NCBI GenBank assembly: GCA_951406725.2
Contig: OX597827.1
Span: 48,360,001 to 48,424,000, forward strand
Reading direction: 5' to 3'
Length of the DNA stretch: 64,000 bases
From: Octopus vulgaris
Lineage: Eukaryota
Position numbers and translations under genes: made by a program. The notes beneath the pieces were generated by a model. The model saw only the letters and a list, made by a program, of their open reading frames with translations. It was not told the origin of the DNA and did no database searches. The stretch's first letter is position 1; each line of letters opens with the position of its first letter. Shown here piece by piece: positions 499-23,655 of this stretch.

Positions 499-960
499 CA
501 AACCTACTCACTAGGTTTTAGTCGTCCCGGATTATAGTAGAAGTCACAAGCTCACGTTGCCACTAGTGGGACTGATCTTGGAACCATGTAGTCGGGAAGG
601 AAACATCTTGTCGTACAACTATATACCCATGTGGGCGCGCACGTGTGTGTGTCGTCCGTAGAAGGAAGTATAGTATCTTTCTGTTCCATCGAAATGTTAG
701 TGGGGACGCACAACATTTGCCAGTAAAATACTAGAAGTATATTGATAGAGCAATTTTGGTGAAATATATATTAGACCAAAATATGTCAAAGAATAGAAGT
801 GATCTATTAGAAATTGCTACCAAGAATATCAACGAGAAATGCAACAGCAAAACCAAAGGTGCATACAACAAAATCAATAATGATATTTCATTGCGTGATG
901 TTATTCACTTTCGAACGTAATTTCCATCATTATTTTGACAAAGGAAAGGTTTCAAATACT

Positions 961-1348
961 ATTTTACTTGTTTTAGTCATTTGACTGCAGCCATGCTGGA
1001 GTATCGCCTTTACTCGAGCAAATCGACGCCCAGGACTTTGTAAATTATTACTTATTCTATCGGTCTCTTTTGCCGGACCGTTATTTTACGGGGACGTAAA
1101 CACACCAGCATCGGTTATCAAGTGATGTTGGTGGGACAAACGCAGATACACAAACATATACACACACATACATATATATATACATATATACGATGGACTT
1201 GTTTCAATTTCCGTCTACCAAATCCACTCACAAGGTTTTGGTCGGGCCGAAGCCATAGTAGAAGACACTTGCCCAAGGTGCCACGCAGTGGGACTGAACC
1301 CAGAACCATGTGGTTGGTAAGCAAGCTACTTACCACACAGCCACTCCT
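961..1348 (-). mobile_element. tRNA-type SINE family A
   Basis: Head GGAGTGGCTGTGTGGTAAG..GGTTCAGTCCC (A/B-box-like), internal (TA/TG)n, tail ending GACTAAAACAAGTAAAA; many copies in window. Confidence 0.9.
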
Positions 1349-2439
1349 TATATCTATGGCCCTCAGATCGTTCAATGACATTTTATGCTATTCTTAATCT
1401 GAATTCACTGTTCGCTTATCCAGCGCATTTGAATAATAATTTCTCATCTGCTCACTTTCTATATTACCTTGCATCATCTCTTAACACTGTCGATAGAGCA
1501 TCAACATTTTAATGACGTTCTAATAAGAGTCATCTTGAGGTAAATCTTCATGATAATTGATTAGGTCTTTTTCGCTTCTGCGATCAACCAACCGCCCTCT
1601 CACCCCAACTCTACGTTTATGAAAAGCACTTGTTGATCAATTGGTTCATAGACTCGAAATTATTGATCATAATCTAGAAAATGCTACCAATAGATAAAGA
1701 CATTTCCGTGAGTGAATGGAGAGGAGGAATTGAAAATACGAATCATCATGCTTATGAAAAAATATTGCTATATATATATATATTATAATTTGTACAAACA
1801 TTGCACCAATTCTCAATGGGAAATGTTTCCTCGAATAATTCATTATCTTTCTTAATGTCCACTTATAGATCAGAATATATTTTGATTTCTACTTCATTAG
1901 ATTTACGTTGCTAATAACATATCTGAAATGCTTGTCTCTTTATCTATCGCCACCGCTATGTACGCACGAACACAAGACCACGTATGGACACTCGGCGGGC
2001 TGCACGCTTTCTTTAGCAAACCAAGATCATCAATCTCTCACACCTCATTGAGAACTATCAATTAAACTCGCCGTATTTAATTAGCCTCTTTGGTAAAGAA
2101 TCCTTGTTTTATTTTCCGCCATTAACATAAATTAGCTTCGTTTCCGTTAACATAATGGAATTTTTGTTTACATAATTATGTAATGGCTGATTACAAATCT
2201 AACTATTCCCTTGTACCTGAACGACCTTCTCTAGTAGATTCCATACGAAAATATCTTGACGAATTGCATGATATATCCACATCATATAGAAATAATTCAT
2301 CCTACCACGGAATTCCTATCACATAAGTTCCAATCAATTCATCTTCGAAGGCATTCTAGTCATAAGCATCCAATCTTTGTTTCAAACCCGCTGCATCTAA
2401 GTCTACATTATACAAAATCTCTTACCAGATTTAAAATTT

Positions 2440-2677
2440 CATGATATAATTTGAGAATAACTTGTATGTAATTCTCTGCAGTCTGAGTGCCCGCATAGCA
2501 TTTCTGCTGCGGTAAACTATATTTGAATTTCGAATCCTTTAAGGGAGTGTATGGTGTTATTATGCTGAATATGGTCGATTTCACCTTATTCTTGGCTAAA
2601 TTGGAAATAGTTTCCAATACACACCAAGATCTCAATATTTGCTGCAGGTAAAAATCTGAAGAGATATCTAACGTCCA
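2440..2677 (-). repeat. Dispersed repeat, inverted partner of 264-498
   Basis: Reverse-complement match to 264-498. Confidence 0.75.
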
Positions 2678-3905
2678 GTTTCTTTACGTATTGTCAGCAT
2701 TATTTTATTATATAAAATGATTTTATTATATAAAATGATTTTATATGGAATCATGCAGTTCTACTTCTTAAATTATGCGTATTTCTGTGAGTAAATATTT
2801 CTGTTTAATAATAACTTAAAAACCAGCTTTCAGAATATTGGTTTCCAATGAAAATGAAATAGTAATGACATAATGATTACAGAATTGTTAAATTACCAGG
2901 TATTAGATAACGGAATATAATCGCAATCGAGGGAAATTCGCTTAGAAATAGGAAACGTTGTCACGTGTTAATTTCTTAATTTACTCTCATATTTCGTTTA
3001 CTTTCCTATCATTCAACGGATCTCATCTTGTTTCCACCTACTCCTAATGTAATTGGTTTAGGCAACTATATTTCTCCTATAGGGAATGCTAGTTAACAAA
3101 AATTTATTGAAATAAGTTCGTAAACCTTAGATTTCCCTAGGGATCAATCAATCAGAATTGAGTTTAACTATAATTCCAGAGCTATATATGTTCCAAATGA
3201 TGGATTACTTCGAGCAGGTAATTACACATGACTGCAATAAATCCAATTAAATCTTTAAATACTGGAATCAATGTCATAACGTTATTACATACTACATAAA
3301 ACTTTAAAATATTGAGTGACATCTCTCAGAAGATTACCTGGGAATAGTAATGACTTCATTAAAAGCTGCCAACTAAACCACAGTAAATATATATCGCAAG
3401 AAATATTTAAATAGCAGTCGACCGAACTATCAATCAGTCTATCTGTAAAGATATCTCTCCTTACTTACACTTTAAATAAATTTGAATTTCTTCCTTACAT
3501 TCCAATATACATATGCTGCGTTTAAGCAGAGGAAACCAGTATATATATTCGTTTATATAACATACGATATTTCTTTTGTTTTTTCACCCCAAATTAACCT
3601 TCACAAAGGCATTCTAGGTGTTAAAACGTAGTCTAAAAATAAATTAACCAAGTGTCCTGTCCACTGGTGAATTTAGAGACAGATTTTGGTTGTTATTACT
3701 AACAGGGAAAGTGTCCATGTAGATGTTTTTTCAATACTGAAAGTGTAGAATAACGCAAATTATATTGTTGTAAAGGCTGTTTGTGCCGCTAATAACAAAA
3801 TCATACACAGCCCGACAGATTTTCGCGACATCACTGACTATTTATCCTAATATTAAACTATATCGATTGGGTTCATTTTTCGATCTAGCATTAGGTATTT
3901 GGCTG

Positions 3906-5992: not shown

Positions 5993-7247
5993 CAGGGTCC
6001 TACAAAGACGACGGACGTTTTTGTCAAAATTGTGTGGAAAACAATATCCCTCATGTGTTGTCCGTTTTCATTGAGGCATTTCTGAAGGTGTTCTTGGTAG
6101 TTTGCTTCCACTCTCTCCAGTATTGCTCTATCGATTTGGGCGACTTCCACGCTAATAGCGTCCTTCATATCGTCCAAGGTACGGGTCTTATGCGCATACG
6201 TATGTGTTTTGAGGTTTCCCCGCAAGAAATAATCACACATGGACAAATCAGGGGAGCCAGCAGACCAAGAAATGTCAATAAACCTGGAAATGCGGGGGTC
6301 ACCGAAAGAGGGCGAAGGATGTCCATTGATGCTTTCCCTATGTGGGCTGTCGCCACATCCTGCTGAAACCACACACATCGATAGACATACGTTTTCGTCG
6401 TAATTCAGGTACAAAGAAGTTCTTTATCATCTTGATGTAATGCCCAGAATTGACAGTAACAATATTTCCAATATTGTCTTCAAAAACGTAAGGACTAGTG
6501 ACGGCCGCATTACCAAAAGCACACCAGACCGTCACTTTTGAACTGTCCAGTGGTCTTTCGCGTAGTTCTCTTGGATTTTCAAGGGCCCAATTACCAAAGT
6601 TCTAATGATTCACCATTCCATTAAGATGAAAATGAGCTTCATCACTCATTAACAAAATGAGGTTACCATTTGCCTCAAAAATTGCTCCCATTTGACGTGG
6701 CATGTTATGCCCCTGTGCATAGTGCCATGGTTTCAACTCTTCCTTAATGGCCAAATTTTACCGGTAAAAATACAGGTTTTCGTGCAAAATACGCCTTACC
6801 GATCGATTACTGGTCCAAAGTTCAGTAGAATTCCCACGAGCAGAGTGATTTGGACTCCGTATCAGAGCTTATCTGATGCGTTCCACATTTTCTGGGGTCC
6901 ATAGGGCTGGTGCCCGCCCCCTACCAGTCTCCTATTCATTAGTGTACTAGGCTACGAAATGCATTCACCCAACTTAAGATTTTGTTACGTGTAGGAGCAG
7001 CTTGATTGCGGTGAATGTTGAAGTATGGAGCCGAAACTGACTCTGAAATGTTGTGATACACTCGTTACTCTTAATGCAACTGTCGTGGACAAACGTGCGA
7101 TGTTCTATCGTCTACAACGCCAAGACTTCACTTGAAAAACAATGCTAAAGCACCACGGACCGAATACTACCTGTCGCACATGTGACCCTCCCCCTGGGGC
7201 TGAGTAATAGCTATTTTCAAAACGTCCCTTCTCTCTGCACCACCCTG
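5993..7247 (-). mobile_element. Full-length defective Tc1/mariner element, DD41D (rosa-like)
   Basis: TA-CAGGGT..ACCCTG-TA termini; frameshifted transposase TVWCAF, WFQQDVATAH..SPDLSMCDYFL with about 41 residues between the last two Asp across the frameshift. Confidence 0.9.
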
Positions 7248-7358
7248 TATATATTTATATATATATATCACTGATGACTTCCTCTCTAGTAATGCCTTCG
7301 TTATATATTGAACAAATGTAATTCTTTCTTCCACAATTGAATTGAACTTCATATTCGA

Positions 7359-7407
7359 GGTTTTGATGAAGCTATGGTGCTTCTTATGGCAGAAACAGCT
7401 GTCAGCT
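7359..7407 (+). ncRNA. Degenerate hammerhead-like motif
   Basis: GGTT-TTGATGA-aGCTAT..ATGGCa-GAAA-CAGCTG-TC-AGCT; palindromic stem III, core C3 replaced by U. Confidence 0.4.
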
Positions 7408-7534
7408 AATCAAAGTTATCACATAACCGTTGTTTTTCATGTGTCATCTCATTTATTATATACATAAATATACATATTTGTTTGTATGTATATATATATA
7501 TTTATATATATATATGTGTGTGTGTGTGTGTATA

Positions 7535-8831
7535 CAGGGTGCAGTGAGAAAATATCGTCTAAATTACGCTAAAATGAATATAACACTGACATCTCATTTT
7601 AACAGATATATTTACCAAAATTGCATAAAACTGTCGTGAAATACTACAGAGTAAATTATTCAATAAAACCGCAATTGGCTTCAACCATGTCCTCCAAACG
7701 ACTTCGGAATCTCTTGCAACTATTCTGGACGGCCTTCTCGTTTAGGTTGCTGAATGCTACCATAATCCTTGCCTTCAGTTCATCTTTGGTATTACAAGGA
7801 CATTTGTTGGTCCCTCACTCGACAGAGCCCTGCACATAATTATCAAGGAGTTGCAATCTGGAAGTTAGCTGGCCAAATGTTTGGGGGTGCTGTGGTGGGA
7901 GAAATTGTCTGACAGCCATGATTGCGTTCTCTTGCTTGTTTAGCTTGGTGCAGAGTCCTTTTCCCGACAGAGGGTGTCCCAGCAGCCACCTTCTTGACTC
8001 AGGGAAACATTACCTCCTCCAGGCACTTGATGTGGGCTTCCGTATTGAGTCGTGGTCGTGTGGGAAGATGAATGAAGGCATAACGTCACCATCACTAATA
8101 ATCACTCCAAACACTTTGATGTTGACATGATATTTGACTGTTATTACTCTGAGCACATGTTTTGGGGACACGGCAAATCAGCAGTTGTTCTATGCGTTCA
8201 CCATCTGATCTTGGTAGAAATTTTTATCGTCAGAGAAAAATTAAAGCATGTTCGGTTAGAGGGGTTGTTTGAGTTTGTTGAAAAGCATCGTAATGCTGTC
8301 TTTTCTCTTGTCCTTGATGGCTTGGGAGGAAAATTGGCCCTTTCTCACCTTGTATGAGGAATTCCGAATGTCTTCATGCACCACCTGCCTAAGAAATTCA
8401 GACACTCCCATGTCCCTGGCGATTGACCTGATTGACTTGGAGGAATCGTTGTCAATCATGGCCTGGATCTCACCAACAAATTTAGGAATTTTTTTTCTTA
8501 TGAGAACGATCAGAGTGAGTTTTCCGATCTGCGTTACCTTCGTAATCACCATTAAACTCATCCAACTCTTTCTGAATCGTCTGCACTATCCTCCGACTGA
8601 CACCCAAACACTCTGAAATGTTCCTATTGAAACTTCCGGCGCGGGTGCCAAGCAGTACAGCATGTCGTTTCCAAATTTCTGGCAGAGTGAATTGCGTCAT
8701 GGTGCATTTTTTTCTCTCAGACGGTGCCAACTGACCCTACTCTGCTGTGTAGTCGACAAAATCAAGAACAAAGGATGCGCATGCGCGAAATTACAAATAT
8801 AAAGTGGCGACAATTTACACATTGCATGCTG
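7535..8831 (-). mobile_element. Defective Tc1/mariner element, maT/DD37D-like
   Basis: TA-CAGGGTGCAGTG..CATTGCATGCTG-TA ends; broken transposase (MAPSER.., KSIRSIARDMGVSE HTH, FSDDKNF, WPANFPDCNSLD). Confidence 0.85.
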
Positions 8832-9171
8832 TATTTACATACATATAACTGTGTGTGTGTGCGTATGTATGCATATATGTATGAATGTATGTGTGTATAA
8901 CTATATATATGTATATCTACATATGCAGGCAGTCAGTCAGGCAGGCAGGCAGACAGTCAGACAGGCAGACAGACATAAATATTTCATGATATTTATGTTC
9001 CAAATTGTAAAATAACAATATCAATGATATTTTATATAATTCGTCTCTATTTTCGAAACTAACTTAAACCAAAATCGTGTAGTTTGGAAATAATATGCAT
9101 AAGAAAACATTTTAATGTATTCCAAATGTCGTTACCGCATATTATATTTTATTTCTTTATATTTTACGCTG

Positions 9172-9211
<40 letters not shown>

Positions 9212-9880
9212 CAAATTGACTTGTATTTCTCAAGTGAGTAAACTACATATGAAAATAATATGCTATTTCGATCAGGTCGAGTGACCTGATAGATTCTGCG
9301 TCGCACTTTCCTATACCTTGCTTAGGTTTAAATCGAACAAGTTCTTATTCAATGAGACTAACGAATGGGCGGTATCTAACGCAGAGCAACAGACGTCACA
9401 ATCATTCAGAACTCAACAAATAGATGGCATTACGCGATTCACTTAAGTTCACAGACAATCTGAAGTCAATGATAAGGATAATATTAACTATCTTCCACTT
9501 GTAACCAAGTGAAACCAAATCAGTATTAAATGAGAATATATTGATGATTGTTATTTGTGTAACCCCATAACCCGTCTTGTCTACTGTCTGTTCACCCCGA
9601 TGATCTGAATAATTGATGTATTGTGTAATTTAAAGATGAAAGTTGATAGATGTAGAACCTTCTAATCAACGCGTCATTGTAATAACAATAATATTTACAA
9701 TTACAATGATATCTCACTAGTTTATGCTTAATGATTTCGTGATGTTCATCAGATTAAAAGCCACACTATCACAGTTGATTGTATAGTAGTTAGGAAGTTG
9801 AGATCAATGCGTCACTGATGTAGTTAACAAGTCTATATACAAAGATATATATATATATATATATATTTATATACATACAT

Positions 9881-9918
<38 letters not shown>

Positions 9919-9944
9919 AGAGAGATAATACCTACAATACATAA

Positions 9945-9990
<46 letters not shown>

Positions 9991-10039
9991 ACATATATAT
10001 AAGTCTGTGTGTGTTTGTGTGTGTGTGTAAAGTGAGTAA

Positions 10040-10324
<285 letters not shown>

Positions 10325-10374
10325 CATTTGATTGATATTGATACTAAGTTGCGTTAAACACTTCGACTGAACAC

Positions 10375-10678
10375 CACATTACTTTCGTTTCCTCTGATGT
10401 GGATATTTACACTGATTTTACTTTCAAAGCGTAAACGATCACGTATCATTTGCCGCCCAATGGAAGCCTCAAAATGTAGAAGCGACTTTTAATTACTTTT
10501 AAATTCTTTCAAGCAAGCGCCGAAAATCTCATGAGGTGGATGTAACACACACGTATGCAGGATGAGATGAAGCAAATATGTATTGTATTACTAACACCAA
10601 AGAAATGTGTTGTGAGCCACTTTCTTTAGCTCGCACGGGTATTCATATATACACATTCATACATATACATACAAACAC

Positions 10679-10697
<19 letters not shown>
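10375..10697 (+). repeat. Local direct duplication, copy 1 (copy 2 at 11589-11910)
   Basis: About 320 bp, apparently identical, offset 1214 bp. Confidence 0.9.
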
Positions 10698-10724
<27 letters not shown>

Positions 10725-11588
10725 TTAAATATTTGTCCTTATACAGTTACACACACACACATACTCACGTATCCACGAACACACCTACATCCAACACACC
10801 ACACACATACAACCTACATGCACATGTACGCACACTCTTATAAACACCTAGCAGAGACACACACACACATACCCGCACGTAAGCGCACACACGCACACAA
10901 GCACGCGCAAGTACATTACGCCAACACAACTCCAACCCCCCACACACACGCATACATTCACACACACATACATACGTACACACACATAATACATATATAC
11001 ATACATTCATACATACATACACACACATGCACACACATACTTACATACATACACACACATACATACACACACACATACATACACACACATACACACACAT
11101 ACACACATACATACATACATACATACAACATACATACAAACATGCATGCATGCATATGTAATTGGCTTATTGCAGGCGTGCGTCAGCGCGTGTGTGTGTG
11201 TGCCTGTGGATTCACATACATCCACACCATTTTTTTCCATCAATCTTTCAATTATAAAGCGTAGGCTTGCATACATATATATACACACATATGAAAATAT
11301 AAACACACATATAAACCTCTACATTTGTACACACACGCACATATATACATATATTCACTCGCACGCACGTACATACATACGCACACATACACACACATTT
11401 ACATATATATACTATACACGCACACACATATACACACGTACAAACACACACAAATTCACATACACACCGACACATATACATACACACAATATATACCTAT
11501 CCGCGCACGCACACATACACATATGTACACACACACATACAAATACAACGCACACATACATACACACACACACACGCAAATGAACCCA

Positions 11589-11910
11589 CACATTACTTTC
11601 GTTTCCTCTGATGTGGATATTTACACTGATTTTACTTTCAAAGCGTAAACGATCACGTATCATTTGCCGCCCAATGGAAGCCTCAAAATGTAGAAGCGAC
11701 TTTTAATTACTTTTAAATTCTTTCAAGCAAGCGCCGAAAATCTCATGAGGTGGATGTAACACACACGTATGCAGGATGAGATGAAGCAAATATGTATTGT
11801 ATTACTAACACCAAAGAAATGTGTTGTGAGCCACTTTCTTTAGCTCGCACGGGTATTCATATATACACATTCATACATATACATACAAACACACACATAC
11901 ACATACACAC
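11589..11910 (+). repeat. Local direct duplication, copy 2
   Basis: Matches 10375-10697. Confidence 0.9.
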
Positions 11911-12116
11911 ATGTGACCTCTTGAGCACCGCCAGCAATTTTTTTTCCTCTCTCTTCCCTTCTCGGGATCTTTCTTTCTCCTTGTTTCCGACGAAGTGCTC
12001 CGCTCGAAACGTTAAACCCTCCTTCTTCCCTTCTTTCCTGAGCGTCCAATAATACTTTATTTGTTCCACGTCCTCGCGTTGCTGTGTTTTTTTGTGTTTT
12101 CTTGTTTGGATTAACT
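11911..12116 (+). mobile_element. Short repeat with minimal hammerhead-like motif (11983-12017); relatives at 23790-23972 and 43316-43482
   Basis: GTTT-CCGACGA-a-gtgc tcc gctc-GAAA-CG-TT-AAAC; shared downstream TTCCTGAGCGT; ends at (TA)n. Confidence 0.6.
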
Positions 12117-12200
12117 ATATATATATAAGTATTACGACGAAGTGGTAGCATTAGCATTACTTCTAATTCATACTTATATGTAAATACAGCCTCAAATAAA

Positions 12201-12274
<74 letters not shown>

Positions 12275-12276
12275 GA

Positions 12277-12309
<33 letters not shown>

Positions 12310-12584
12310 GGGGTGAAATATAATTAATTTAATAAAATCAACCTATTAGTATTTCGGTATGGAAAAGGACCATATTCGGTAAAAACTTATATAATTATAA
12401 CAATAAGGGTTTTTGCAACACGTTGCTTGACCACATACCGAAAATTTTAGAAATAGCAGCCAAAGGACTACTATTTCCTTTTACTATAAAATATATCTCC
12501 ACAGACAACAATATTTGTAACTCACATATGGCAAAAAAAAGAGAAGAAAAATAATGAAATCAAACAGTCTTCGGTTAATTATGG

Positions 12585-12633
12585 ATGTACGTTTCTGGAT
12601 TAGAATCATAAGACTCATGTCCTTCATCAACAT
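12585..12633 (-). ncRNA. Degenerate hammerhead-like motif within a (TA)n-flanked repeat (about 12310-13070)
   Basis: Minus strand ATG-TTGATGA-aGGA..TCCa-GAAA-CG-TA-CAT. Confidence 0.4.
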
Positions 12634-13498
12634 AATATTCTGATAAATCTAGAAATGCTAGGAAAACTTACCTCCAATATTTCCGATCAAGCGACATCGG
12701 AACATATAAAAGCTAATCAGCATATCCACATTTATATAGACAAGTGAATTCGTATTTCCCTCCAGAACCTTTACCACGTGAGTCACAAAATAGTACTGCC
12801 GAAAAAAGATTCGTATTTTTGTCGTAGATATATATATGTAGATTTATTTTCTCCATTCCCTACACTTTTCAATTTAAACTCGCATGATGGGCAATCTTAA
12901 ACCCTGATTTGTATAGTTGATGTAATCTTACCGAAATCTTCGACATGGAACAAATATTATTAAATAATTAGTTGAAGGCGTACTCCTTCGATACATTTAT
13001 GACGTGTACATAATTGATGCTAATTAACTGCCTATATCAATACCTTTACGGATTGCACTACCTAGCCGCTATATATATGTATGTATGTATGAATGTATTT
13101 ATGTATGTATGTAAGCATGCATACTGTGTCTCCCACAATGTGTATACTCTTATTGAATCATCATAAAGTCAGAGTTTTTTGTACGAATAACAAAAAGGAA
13201 AAATTCAGTTTTAAGAATTTGCAAATACTTATACAATTGTTTTTTTAATTTTTTATGAACGCCTATTTTGAATCGGATGATCGTTCTAGACCAGATACTC
13301 CTAATTACTCGAAGCAATAGAAACACATTTCATTAGCACATTTGTGCATATTCTTTTTAACAATAAAGCTCCACAACTTCAATGGTTAGCATGGGTGGAC
13401 GTTGCAGGAAGTTCAGTAAACAGGACCAGTCACAACAATTAACGGTCCAGTCAAACACAATTTCCCTATTGTTGCTCCTGGAATATATATATATATAT

Positions 13499-13633
13499 AT
13501 ATAATTAATTAATACGGGTGAGAGAATTAGATACTAATTTAATAGTATATTTATTCCACACCAAGTGGCCTAGTGCTACGAGAAACCTGGATTATTATAA
13601 TATTTTATAACATATTATAATATTTTCACAAAA
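13499..13633 (-). repeat. Inverted partial copy of the 534-bp unit, abutting (TA)n
   Basis: Reverse complement of 14157-14291 with one mismatch; forms a palindrome with arms of about 128 bp centred at 13628. Confidence 0.9.
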
Positions 13634-13926
13634 TATTATAATATGTTATAAAATATTATAATAATCCAGGTTTCTCGTAGCACTAGGCCACTTGGTGTGG
13701 AATAAATATACTATTAAATTAGTATCTAATTCTCTCACCCTTATTAATTAATTATAATTATGCTGCATTTATTTCTAAATGCTGTATTTGTTTTCCGTGA
13801 GAGTTTGGCGCGCTGTTGGTTGGGGCATTTGAATTATAACGTCCGATGTAATCAATTGAACCGCACGCGTATTTATCGTTATGGTAAAATCTGGCGTGTG
13901 ATTGAGTGGATTTCATCCAGATAGTC

Positions 13927-14002
13927 TTGGCTGAAGAGCTACAAATGGATTACTGTAAGTAATATTACATTTAATTCATTAATAGCGAAACAATTGTCCC
14001 AA
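13927..14002 (+). ncRNA. Type I hammerhead ribozyme, copy 1
   Basis: TTGG-CTGAAGA-GCTA..TAGC-GAAA-CAATTG-TC-CCAA; extended stem II (AATGGATTA/TAATTCATT, TGTAA/TTACA); predicted cleavage after GUC at 13998. Confidence 0.85.
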
Positions 14003-14460
14003 AATAATCTGTATTTTTGTTATTTTTTATTTGCCCTGTCCGTGTGAGCTAACAGTCGTACCGGCTTTCATGGGAAACATGTATTTTTCGTGGTTGAAAC
14101 CTCTTGGATTAACTGGTGCTAGAGTGATCAATATAGTGAACACTCTCTTATATTTATTTTGTGAAAATATTATAATATGTTATAAAATATTATAATAATC
14201 CAGGTTTCTCGTAGCACTAGGCCACTTGGTGTGGAATAAATATACTATTAAATTAGTATCTAATTCTCTCACCCTTATTAATTAATTATAATTATGCTGC
14301 ATTTATTTCTAAATGCTGTATTTGTTTTCCGTGAGAGTTTGGCGCGCTGTTGGTTGGGGCATTTGAATTATAACGTCCGATGTAATCAATTGAACCGCAC
14401 GCGTATTTATCGTTATGGTAAAATCTGGCGTGTGATTGAGTGGATTTCATCCAGATAGTC

Positions 14461-14536
14461 TTGGCTGAAGAGCTACAAATGGATTACTGTAAGTAATATT
14501 ACATTTAATTCATTAATAGCGAAACAATTGTCCCAA
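14461..14536 (+). ncRNA. Type I hammerhead ribozyme, copy 2
   Basis: Same as copy 1; predicted cleavage after 14532. Confidence 0.85.
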
Positions 14537-14994
14537 AATAATCTGTATTTTTGTTATTTTTTATTTGCCCTGTCCGTGTGAGCTAACAGTCGTACCGGCT
14601 TTCATGGGAAACATGTATTTTTCGTGGTTGAAACCTCTTGGATTAACTGGTGCTAGAGTGATCAATATAGTGAACACTCTCTTATATTTATTTTGTGAAA
14701 ATATTATAATATGTTATAAAATATTATAATAATCCAGGTTTCTCGTAGCACTAGGCCACTTGGTGTGGAATAAATATACTATTAAATTAGTATCTAATTC
14801 TCTCACCCTTATTAATTAATTATAATTATGCTGCATTTATTTCTAAATGCTGTATTTGTTTTCCGTGAGAGTTTGGCGCGCTGTTGGTTGGGGCATTTGA
14901 ATTATAACGTCCGATGTAATCAATTGAACCGCACGCGTATTTATCGTTATGGTAAAATCTGGCGTGTGATTGAGTGGATTTCATCCAGATAGTC

Positions 14995-15070
14995 TTGGCT
15001 GAAGAGCTACAAATGGATTACTGTAAGTAATATTACATTTAATTCATTAATAGCGAAACAATTGTCCCAA
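14995..15070 (+). ncRNA. Type I hammerhead ribozyme, copy 3
   Basis: Same as copy 1; predicted cleavage after 15066. Confidence 0.85.
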
Positions 15071-15227
15071 AATAATCTGTATTTTTGTTATTTTTTATTT
15101 GCCCTGTCCGTGTGAGCTAACAGTCGTACCGGCTTTCATGGGAAACATGTATTTTTCGTGGTTGAAACCTCTTGGATTAACTGGTGCTAGAGTGATCAAT
15201 ATAGTGAACACTCTCTTATATTTATTT

Positions 15228-15268
<41 letters not shown>

Positions 15269-15438
15269 AGAAAAGGGTAAAATAAATTCATTAATTAATC
15301 ACTTAATTAATTAATAATTTCACCTAGTAGTTCGGTACGTTAAACTAACCTTTGTAGGTAAAATTATATAAATATTCTATAATTATAAACATAATTATTA
15401 TTAGGGGTCAACTAATTGCTTCGCCACACACAATTTAG

Positions 15439-15498
<60 letters not shown>

Positions 15499-15531
15499 AT
15501 GTATATATGTACGTATATATACAAACATATA

Positions 15532-15829
15532 TCAAGTGACCGACCAGACCATCAGATGTTGTTACACATCGCTGGTCACAATGCGTTTGTATTATTTTAG
15601 CCTTCGAATGAGGCCACCTCGCTGGCTAAGCGAGCAGGCCAACAGAAGAAAGAGTGAGAGAAAGAGTGGTGAAAGAGTACGGCAGAGATCACCACCCCCT
15701 GCCGGAGCCTCGTGGAGCTTTTAGGTGTTTTCGCTCAATAAACACTCACAACGCCCGGTCTGGGAATCGAAACTGCGATCCTGCGACTGCGAGTCCGCTG
15801 CCCTAACCACTAGGTCATTGCGCCTCCAC
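15532..15829 (-). mobile_element. tRNA-derived SINE family B
   Basis: Head GGAGGCGCAATGACCTAGTGGTTAGGGCAGCGGACTCGC..GTTTCGATTCCC; homologous to 22369-22678. Confidence 0.9.
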
Positions 15830-16142
15830 ACACACTCACACATATATATATATATACATATATATATAAAACCACTAGGCCATTGCGCCTCCACATATAT
15901 ATATATATATACATATATATATACATATATATACATATAATATACATACATTTATGTGCATATATATGTATATGTATACATATACATATCCGAGTGTATA
16001 TGTGTGTGTGTCTGTGTCTGAGTGTGTGTGTGTACACGAGCATGTGTATGTATAATTCAATTTGATGTTTCCAGTTCTTAAATTTACTTTTATAACTCCA
16101 CCAATTGAACTGTGATATTTCACATGAACATATTGATCATTA

Positions 16143-16208
<66 letters not shown>

Positions 16209-16236
16209 ATACACCTCGCTCAGAGATTTATTATTG

Positions 16237-16280
<44 letters not shown>

Positions 16281-16281
<1 letters not shown>

Positions 16282-16415
16282 GTTTCAGATTTTGGCACAA
16301 GGCCGGCAAATCCGAGGAAAAGTGTAAGTCGATTACATCGATGCCAGGTTTCTACTGGTACTTGTTTTATCGACCCCGATACGATAAAAGACAAAATCGA
16401 CTTTGGCGGATGACG
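16281..16415 (-). mobile_element. SINE family C fragment
   Basis: GGGGTCGATAAAACAAGTACCAG core. Confidence 0.7.
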
Positions 16416-20449: not shown

Positions 20450-20484
20450 CTGAAGACATTGTTATGGCAATGGAAACTATAGTC
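20450..20484 (+). ncRNA. Hammerhead core lacking a pairable stem I
   Basis: CTGAAGA-CATTG ttatgg CAATG-GAAA-CTATAG-TC. Confidence 0.35.
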
Positions 20485-20644
20485 AATATTCTGACAGCAT
20501 CGTAATTGTATAATGAAAGGCAGACGTTTACAACTTGCCAATGCATTTAATTGATTTTAATTAGTTTACAAATACAGTGACAGTTCAAAATCTCTACGTT
20601 CATTACGTAGTATTCTATACCATATGTATGTATGTATTATGTAT

Positions 20645-22807: not shown

Positions 22808-23655
22808 TGATAAAACGGTAAGATAACAAAAGAAAGAAAGAGACCTCAATATTATGTAAATAGAGGAAATTTATCTATACAATATGTTACATTACTCGGT
22901 AGTCAAGATAAACTCTGAGTTTCAGATGCCGAAGTGGAAATCCACAACACCATCTCTTCGGTTATCTGGCTATTTGAAAACGTTATGAAAAAATACCGTT
23001 AAAAATGAAGGGAAATTACTCTGTTATAACTCTGCTTTGCCTGCGTACTTATACATCGCTCGCATTTTTCGTCATAAAAATTATATAAAAATACATAAAA
23101 AAATATATAAAAATATATAAAAATATATAAAATCTTCTTGGGACATAACATAGAAAGCATGTTCTATCCGTTTTCTTTAGGGGACCAAAAACGTAACAGA
23201 AATTTAGTCACATGTGGGCATGATCCGAACATGGAGAGATGGCTTATCTGGAAAAGCAGCTTAGACCCTACCACATGTCTAAATACAAGGACAGAGCTTT
23301 TCGGATCATGCCCACATGTGACTAAATTTCTGTTACGTTTTTGGTCCCCTAAAGAAAACGGATAGAACATGCTTTCTGTGTTATGTCCCAAGAAGATTTT
23401 ATATATTTTTATATATTTTTATATATTTTTTAATGTATTTTTATATAATTTTTATGACGAAAAATGCGAGCGATGTATAAGTACGCAGGCAAAGCAGAGT
23501 TATAACAGAGTAATTTCCCTTCATTTTTAACGGTATTTTTTCATAACGTTTTCAAATAGCCAGATAACCGAAGAGATGGTTTGTGGATTTCCACTTCGGC
23601 ATCTGAAACTCAGAGTTTTATCTTGACTACCGAGTAATGTAACATATTGTATAGA
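22808..23655. mobile_element. Penelope-like element 3' end as an inverted pair (arms 22874-23229 and 23300-23655)
   Basis: Near-perfect arms of about 356 bp; central peptide ERWLIWKSSLDPTTCLNTRTELFGSCPHVTKFLL fits the E..I..LN.R.EL...C.H..K.LL end of PLE GIY-YIG proteins as recalled; hammerhead-like motif in each arm. Confidence 0.75.
23562..23623 (+). ncRNA. Hammerhead-like motif with CCGAAGA core (mirror copy about 22905-22967, minus strand)
   Basis: AGATAA-CCGAAGA-GATG..CATC-t-GAAA-CTCAGAG-TT-TTATCT. Confidence 0.55.

Follow-up and report, generated by a model that had tools for sequence, protein, structure and literature searches.

Within the 64-kb stretch of DNA analysed here, the window (contig C14, 48360001-48424000), an array of 534-bp repeats probably marks the recent insertion into (TA)n of a hammerhead retrozyme that codes for no protein, made when a dimeric Penelope-like (PLE) enzyme, probably of the Hydra clade, primed both nicked strands at two fixed sites, likely on one circular 534-nt RNA. 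There can be little doubt that the element is a retrozyme of the non-LTR type, and it is very likely that a PLE enzyme moved it. The retrozyme class is already known; the new part is the insertion footprint, read here from copies dispersed through the 2.8 Gb genome that was searched.

Structure of the locus

The array has a perfect 534-bp periodicity. At a lag of 534, 1065 of 1065 positions from 13630 to 14694 are identical and the direct array therefore extends from 13630 to 15228, a length of 1599 bp or 2.99 units (Table 1). Unit positions 1 to 534 correspond to window positions 14695-15228, with the predicted cut after unit position 372. The initial annotation described three identical 534-bp units within (TA)n. 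The repeat is indeed perfect and (TA)n adjoins it on both sides, but the first ~130 bp belong to no direct unit and carry unit positions 1 to 130 in inverted orientation, and the direct array has only 2.99 units. Positions 13500-13626 of this inverted arm pair with 13630-13756 with a single mismatch (13515/13741), and the arm together with 13630-13757 makes up a palindrome of ~128 bp whose loop is 3 nt long (13627-13629). The inverted arm and the two fixed ends documented below are the informative features of the insertion, and were missed at first reading. With 2.99 direct units, this locus could release no more than two complete monomers bounded by cleavage sites; the cuts originally placed at 13998, 14532 and 15066 agree with the positions predicted here but would yield two, not three.

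The units are non-coding, as first described. The longest ATG frame in the circular 534-bp unit has 54 aa, there is no RT or GIY-YIG ORF, and no PLE protein match was obtained anywhere in the 64-kb window. Further copies of the 130-nt segment that resembles a PLE tail are present at 13627-13756 and 14695-14824, and motifs in this segment are common to related families with periods of 493, 506 and ~594 bp. Elsewhere in the window, two AT-rich, mirror-like repeats ~270 bp apart (23074-23132 and 23397-23455) are possibly a small two-armed insertion, and a single weak match to a hammerhead-like pattern (20450-20490) is probably due to chance.

Table 1. Features of the retrozyme insertion, in window positions
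Feature	Positions	Strand	Basis
(TA)n target, left side	13483..13502	.	sequence
Inverted arm ending outward at site B; 'tail' segment, unit positions ~1-130	13499..13629	-	self-comparison
Direct arm, outer end at site A (unit position 534)	13630..15228	+	534-bp periodicity
Identical direct units	13630-14160, 14161-14694, 14695-15228	+	534-bp periodicity
Type I hammerhead copy 1, predicted cut after C13998	13918..14011	+	motif, fold, Rfam, covariation
Copy 1, stem I	13918-13930 with 13999-14011	+	
Copy 1, core CUGAAGA	13931-13937	+	
Copy 1, long stem II, 49-nt region	13938-13986	+	
Copy 1, GAAA	13987-13990	+	
Copy 1, palindromic stem III	13990-13997	+	
First predicted 534-nt monomer between cuts (candidate circular RNA)	13999..14532	+	inferred from hammerhead positions; circular fold
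130-nt segment, site A (14160) to site B (14290), PLE-type 'tail'	14161..14290	+	
Hammerhead copy 2, predicted cut after 14532	14452..14545	+	motif
Second predicted 534-nt monomer	14533..15066	+	inferred from hammerhead positions
Hammerhead copy 3, predicted cut after 15066	14986..15079	+	motif
(TA)n target, right side	15231..15265	.	

A hammerhead in each unit

Each unit has, in order, CUGAAGA (starting at 13931, 14465 and 14999), a 49-nt stem II region, GAAA, the palindrome ACAAUUGU and GUC, with an extended stem I closing the structure. These are the CUGANGA, GAAA and NUH core elements and helices I-III of a complete type I hammerhead, with the long stem II and minimal palindromic stem III recognised in the initial annotation. 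The hammerhead region has a fold z of -2.2, and the predicted fold is supported by covariation across the related families. In eight distinct related-family sequences, 93% of cells are paired and 6 of 18 pairs have two-sided changes; none of 500 shuffles attains the covariation score, and slid controls pair in only 27-45%. The Rfam search that had been suggested gave a match to Hammerhead_1 (RF00163) in a 151-nt scan (26.7 bits, E 6.9e-5), but this is below the gathering score of 34, because the long stem II insert is absent from the model, and Hammerhead_1 was not found in a 4-kb scan of the locus. The miRNA matches returned by the 4-kb scan were rejected, as they reflect only the palindrome and microsatellites.

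By prediction, stem III forms chiefly between two copies, in line with the dimer cleavage initially noted for hammerheads of this kind. The minimum-energy cofold structure is a double hammerhead (-49.4 versus 2 x -20.4 kcal/mol, 8.6 kcal/mol lower) and, in the fold of the circular monomer, stems I and II have probabilities of 0.77-0.99 and stem III of 0.04. This predicted fold agrees with the dimer regulation of hammerheads described in PMC4209133. The satellite hammerheads of newt and axolotl also have a weak palindromic helix III, with dimer-dependent cleavage (PMC7229834), whereas here helix III consists of 2 bp with a palindromic AAUU loop, and the second stem is far longer. Telling against the model favoured below, eight of nine Xenopus retrozyme dimers reported in 10.64898/2026.07.22.740005 did not cleave.

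Hammerheads at four loci of related retrozyme families (L228, L219, L127 and L213) have CCGA(A/G)GA in place of CUGANGA with the covarying stems kept, and L228 is nevertheless a perfect 493-bp tandem; such cores are either a tolerated variant or a sign that cleavage is dispensable. A further tandem hammerhead family, at L079, has CUGAUGA, a long stem II and a ACGAUCGU palindrome in two copies ~530 bp apart, and its 3' flank resembles the Hydra-2 elements described below.

A genome-wide retrozyme family

The window copy belongs to a young, genome-wide family of 534-base non-coding repeats. There are at least 546 exact genome matches to a hammerhead 21-mer, 1,934 to the unit-junction sequence and 3,574 to a tail motif, with zero matches to the reversed control of each; the dispersed multimers that the initial annotation expected are thus present. 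Non-coding tandem units with a hammerhead in each, dispersed multimers and, where visible, target duplications longer than 4 bp (14-15 nt at the non-microsatellite sites L037 and L067) are features of non-LTR retrozymes, and the fold, the dispersal and the PLE-type insertion ends all support the original identification. Metazoan non-LTR retrozymes (PMC7229834; 10.64898/2026.07.22.740005) are likewise non-coding, low-GC tandem units with one type I hammerhead each, occur as dimers to multimers with long target duplications, and coexist with PLEs. At 534 nt the unit is above the 170-400 nt of PMC7229834 and within the 51-972 bp of 10.64898/2026.07.22.740005. The long stem II sets this family apart, as do head-to-head arms, two fixed ends and array clonality, which are not described in the passages of those papers used for comparison. 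The giant squid genome has 235 Hammerhead_1 loci, given as uncharacterised in PMC6962438. Searches of the open-licence literature gave no paper on a cephalopod retrozyme family or on a rule of one site per arm; the supplements of PMC8557442 and PMC7229834 may include this repeat or the Hydra families described below.

Contigs from sequencing runs X1, X3 and X8, which we guess to be RNA but could be DNA, cover 28, 30 and 30 of 30 unit bins, respectively, and those of X8 are from a second organism. Contig depth over the unit in X3 is ~600-3500; such contigs are blind to ends, strand and circles. Raw reads of run X21, from another organism, gave no match to the unit, a result that carries no weight for expression. 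In low-depth X8 contigs over window positions 13990-14121, read without matched DNA, A>G changes are present at 11 places and T>C at one, relative to the + strand, a pattern resembling A-to-I editing in a + strand transcript. Among fixed changes, an imprint of such editing is not significant (A>G 14, T>C 9, p 0.09).

Assembly errors typically produce identical units and palindromes, the locus was read from the assembly and its Rfam score is below the gathering cut-off, as would be expected of an ordinary satellite, or a collapsed, duplicated or chimerically inverted assembly, with a hammerhead by chance. This explanation is largely refuted and highly improbable. There are dozens of dispersed loci with their own haplotypes, differing lengths, the same two ends and target duplications, the tandem joint is present in independent runs X3 and X8, and covariation supports the fold.

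Two fixed outer ends

The footprint was read from 62 mapped loci, a non-random sample. It comprises the window, top-identity unit matches, all places in the first 100 listed hammerhead 21-mer matches, a hand-picked set from the first 100 listed tail-motif matches and four others, with two duplicates (L038 and L135) dropped. In these loci, the outer 3' ends are at two sites 130 nt apart, A at unit position ~534 and B at ~130. Among complete two-armed insertions, 34 of 35 pair an A end with a B end, split evenly (17 each) between the two orientations; A+A and B+B are both absent, and the remaining insertion combines a B end with a non-standard one at position 290. (L053, cut by the edge of the retrieved segment, was excluded from this set.) With the A and B frequencies of the 26 one-armed insertions, of which 14 end at B and 12 at A, 34 mixed pairs under independent choice of ends have a p of ~6e-11. 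The rule also holds in the 493- and 506-bp families, in which all four two-armed copies obey it and tails are ~110 nt. (TA)n is present at 86 of 96 fixed ends. Host flanks on both sides of the insertions at L057 and L065 are inverted repeats of each other, which suggests rearrangement at insertion or nesting within another two-armed element.

As the fixed ends face the flanks, they would be priming points and, by the geometry of target-primed RT, the template would have to be the hammerhead (+) strand. The pairing of one A with one B end implies that, within one event, two PLE subunits use different sites. The ends have the signature of PLE insertion (tail, inverted arm, TA target), and an inverted 5'-truncated arm with the tail on one side, targets that are AT-rich or (TA)n, a pair of RT start sites and a hammerhead upstream of the ends are all shared with canonical EN+ PLE insertions that have an inverted pLTR (PMC3846280, PMC8557442, PMC11167929). 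In contrast to those elements, there is no ORF here, the tail is 130 nt rather than 30-40 nt, and there are up to 13 identical units per arm. In the same papers the tail is called optional or usually at one end, whereas here there is one of each end in 34 of 35 insertions.

The inner ends are scattered over the unit, with only 2 of 72 at the predicted cut site (367-378); an apparent pile-up at unit positions 1-8 was discounted as largely an artefact of the unit boundary. Overlaps at the junctions between arms are mostly 0-6 nt. A single priming event followed by RT fold-back, or by self-priming of antisense RNA, could also build an inverted arm, with the second end trimmed by an endonuclease at the other site; antisense-template self-priming (PMC3846280) and endonuclease-mediated tail resolution (PMC8557442) are published proposals. 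Consistent with this, the window copy is a near-perfect palindrome, and 11 of 36 junctions come close to one, their inner ends lying no more than 30 nt apart modulo 534 (p 0.002); the other 25 do not, with offsets of up to 267 nt. Since the longer arm may be either A or B, the second end would in every case have to fall at whichever site the first had not used. Each site serves as the sole end of some one-armed copies (A in 12, B in 14), and in vitro RT starts at both boundaries of the tail (PMC11167929). Fold-back is therefore distinctly unlikely, and priming at both sites is preferred.

Arms of up to ~6.8 kb are present, with up to ~13 identical units. A cut linear monomer would allow a maximum of 162 nt for an A arm or 292 nt for a B arm. 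These limits are exceeded by 41 of 46 A arms and by 39 of the 49 B arms, an excess inflated by the choice of loci by long or hammerhead matches.

Clonality of the arrays

Among 136 full units from 35 loci, compared over 520 columns, the median difference is 0 within arrays and 6 between arrays, and the 61 pairs of units from opposite arms differ by a mean of 0.9. There are 27 haplotypes among 36 multi-unit arrays, each common to the units of both arms. In the 26 arrays with at least three units, 57 within-array variants are singletons and 5 are shared, and almost none is common to different loci. A single circle copied by rolling would be the simplest account of both this clonality and the arm lengths, and is preferred to jumping between pooled monomers because the latter would give mosaics. 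Against this account, four arrays (L042, L053, L054 and L221) are mosaic. In the 12-unit arm of L221, one substitution, at unit position 86, recurs aperiodically in units 0, 2, 5 and 10; the recurrence there and in L053 could reflect either gene conversion or a circular template in which one modified base was misread repeatedly.

Two-site priming by a PLE could also occur on uncut linear multimers, with array length maintained by unequal exchange at the DNA level, no circle and a perhaps incidental hammerhead. For any single insertion, homogeneous young parents would likewise yield homogeneous daughters, L053 and L221 are mosaic, and local amplification is the model in 10.64898/2026.07.22.740005. 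Furthermore, cleavage is dispensable for PLE insertion in vitro, where hammerhead mutants still insert, and no RNA-seq ends were reported at the cut site in Anolis (both in PMC11167929). Against this, 27 haplotypes in 36 arrays, fixed over units and both arms, would need repeated bottlenecks of one unit followed by re-expansion, and gradual exchange would give adjacent blocks of shared variants rather than 57 singletons and 5 shared. The hammerhead fold is, in addition, conserved with compensatory changes. Insertion from linear multimers is accordingly judged unlikely, though it retains some weight, and copying from a circle is favoured.

Candidate helper elements

Four PLE groups were sampled, with 150 of 6,136 to 16,337 candidates scored in each protein search. 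Two groups are Hydra-type, with long open frames among the sampled candidates (899 aa in Hydra-1, up to 1091 aa in Hydra-2). Judged by the motifs listed in PMC8557442 rather than by phylogeny, they have the Hydra features DKT, a C-terminal GIY-like EN, CxxC, CxH, a TA target and a canonical hammerhead; the CxCx5C linker is in Hydra-2 only, RWL is in Hydra-1, and there is no RWK match in Hydra-2. A Pfam search of the Hydra-type proteins gave no RT or EN match. On its motifs, the Hydra RT was first read as Naiad, but DKT and the C-terminal position of the endonuclease indicate Hydra. Six Hydra-type loci (L271, L279, L280, L308, L315 and L332) have many near-identical intact frames, the longest with Asn-rich inserts, and tandems of at least 2.6 units; their tails of 120-155 nt compare with 30-40 nt in published elements.

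The Hydra-type groups share several features with the retrozyme. Hydra-clade PLEs in general have (TA)n targeting and canonical hammerheads (PMC8557442), and the local elements have a long stem II, with the same ACAAUUGU stem III in Hydra-2. Their tails are ~155 and ~120 nt and, scored by eye, 13 of 13 and 2 of 2 two-armed copies have one of each end. The 36 nt after the cut align with Hydra-2 at 20.5 versus 11.0 +/- 1.0 for shuffles, exceeded by none of 200, and with Hydra-1 also by none of 200, in a comparison made without a Neptune control. Alignments of the post-cut region as a whole are no better than shuffles (Hydra-2 125/500, Hydra-1 476/500, Neptune-like 70/500), stem II similarity to the Hydra groups is absent (194/200 and 199/200 shuffles), and an HMM of the family has no match on Hydra-1 or Neptune and at most 11 bits on Hydra-2. 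The retrozyme tail has no detectable homology to the sampled Hydra pLTRs and its ends, at +162 and +292 from the cut, are ~127 nt further away than those of Hydra-2 (+35 and +155). The initial proposal of retrotransposition by a PLE enzyme is supported by the tail, inverted arm, (TA)n target and long duplication at the ends, but an autonomous parent with a homologous tail was not found among the sampled PLEs.

The third group is labelled Neptune-like from its C-terminal GIY-YIG and linker cysteines. It has many intact 781-codon frames and (TA)n targets; the tail is 34 nt and the hammerhead a short U3-A8 type. As 3 of 3 two-armed copies have one of each end, the one-of-each rule marks PLEs in general, not Hydra. 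The mechanism could therefore be as proposed with a Neptune-like or unsampled PLE family as helper, the more so as 150 candidates were scored per search. The tail length, short hammerhead and absence of DNA similarity to the 534-bp unit argue against the Neptune-like family, which was also rejected as sequence parent, whereas Hydra tails and hammerheads resemble those of the retrozyme. Such a helper is improbable overall, and a minority possibility if a PLE is responsible. The Poseidon-like family was rejected as sequence parent, as it has no similarity and the copies examined are broken or decayed. The Hydra type is the likeliest helper because it combines the same end rule with tails of 120-155 nt; within the PLE model it is reasonably likely to be the source of the enzyme, as the best candidate without demonstrated parentage.

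At L206, a Hydra RT fragment is joined to a related retrozyme end. A template-switch chimera was considered and rejected, since the paralogous L243 holds a whole Hydra copy at the same site; L206 is thus a later insertion or rearrangement and no evidence of a shared particle. L241, L242 and L243 (C1, ~7.5 Mb and ~205.7-205.9 Mb) are near-identical segments ~198 Mb apart on one contig, either a segmental or an assembly duplication. Three Neptune-like copies (L104:768-2207, L112:781-2220 and L114:818-2257) have a 479-codon frame upstream of, and overlapping, the RT-EN frame, with no convincing Pfam match. EN+ PLEs have been described as single-ORF elements.

A model for insertion, and its meaning

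Following the precedent of other retrozymes (PMC7229834), the tandem locus would be transcribed from the + strand, neighbouring hammerheads would pair via their stem III palindromes and cut after GUC, and a host ligase would close the monomer into a circle, which would resist recutting because stem III is weak alone. A PLE protein would bind the tail region, and two endonucleases would nick opposite strands ~14 nt apart. One RT would then begin at site A on one strand and a second at site B on the other, each travelling around the circle for a number of turns that varies (up to ~13), reading through the cut site, before stopping. Joining of the inner ends by 0-6-nt microhomology would give head-to-head arms with different 3' ends, and a one-armed insertion would result when only one priming succeeded. 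The clonality of the arrays is the basis for proposing rolling, and the junctions for proposing joining by microhomology. For another, purified PLE, RT has been documented to start at two sites within the RNA, which form the boundaries of the tail, both strands are cut and extended, and a dimer is predicted; in that bulk assay, the start sites are alike on both strands (PMC11167929). More tentatively, and with somewhat less than an even chance, a Hydra-clade PLE dimer holds one RNA circle with each subunit committed to its own start site and DNA strand, both rolling.

Mobilisation of retrozymes by PLEs via circles has been proposed, not shown (PMC7229834, PMC4209133), and the origin of tandem and inverted PLE insertions is stated as open in PMC8557442. 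As a short, young and abundant family, the retrozyme provides countable footprints, the one-start-site-per-arm rule and clonal arrays, for both questions. Because the RT start sites are both predicted exactly, the template is 534 nt long and the candidate enzyme has intact frames, the model is testable in the existing in vitro PLE assay. If the model is correct, a single rule would explain the PLE tail, head-to-head arms and tandem arrays together, the 130-nt tail and hammerhead would constitute a portable cis-cassette for circle-templated, two-ended integration, and the insertions would be a genomic record of the full retrozyme/PLE cycle.
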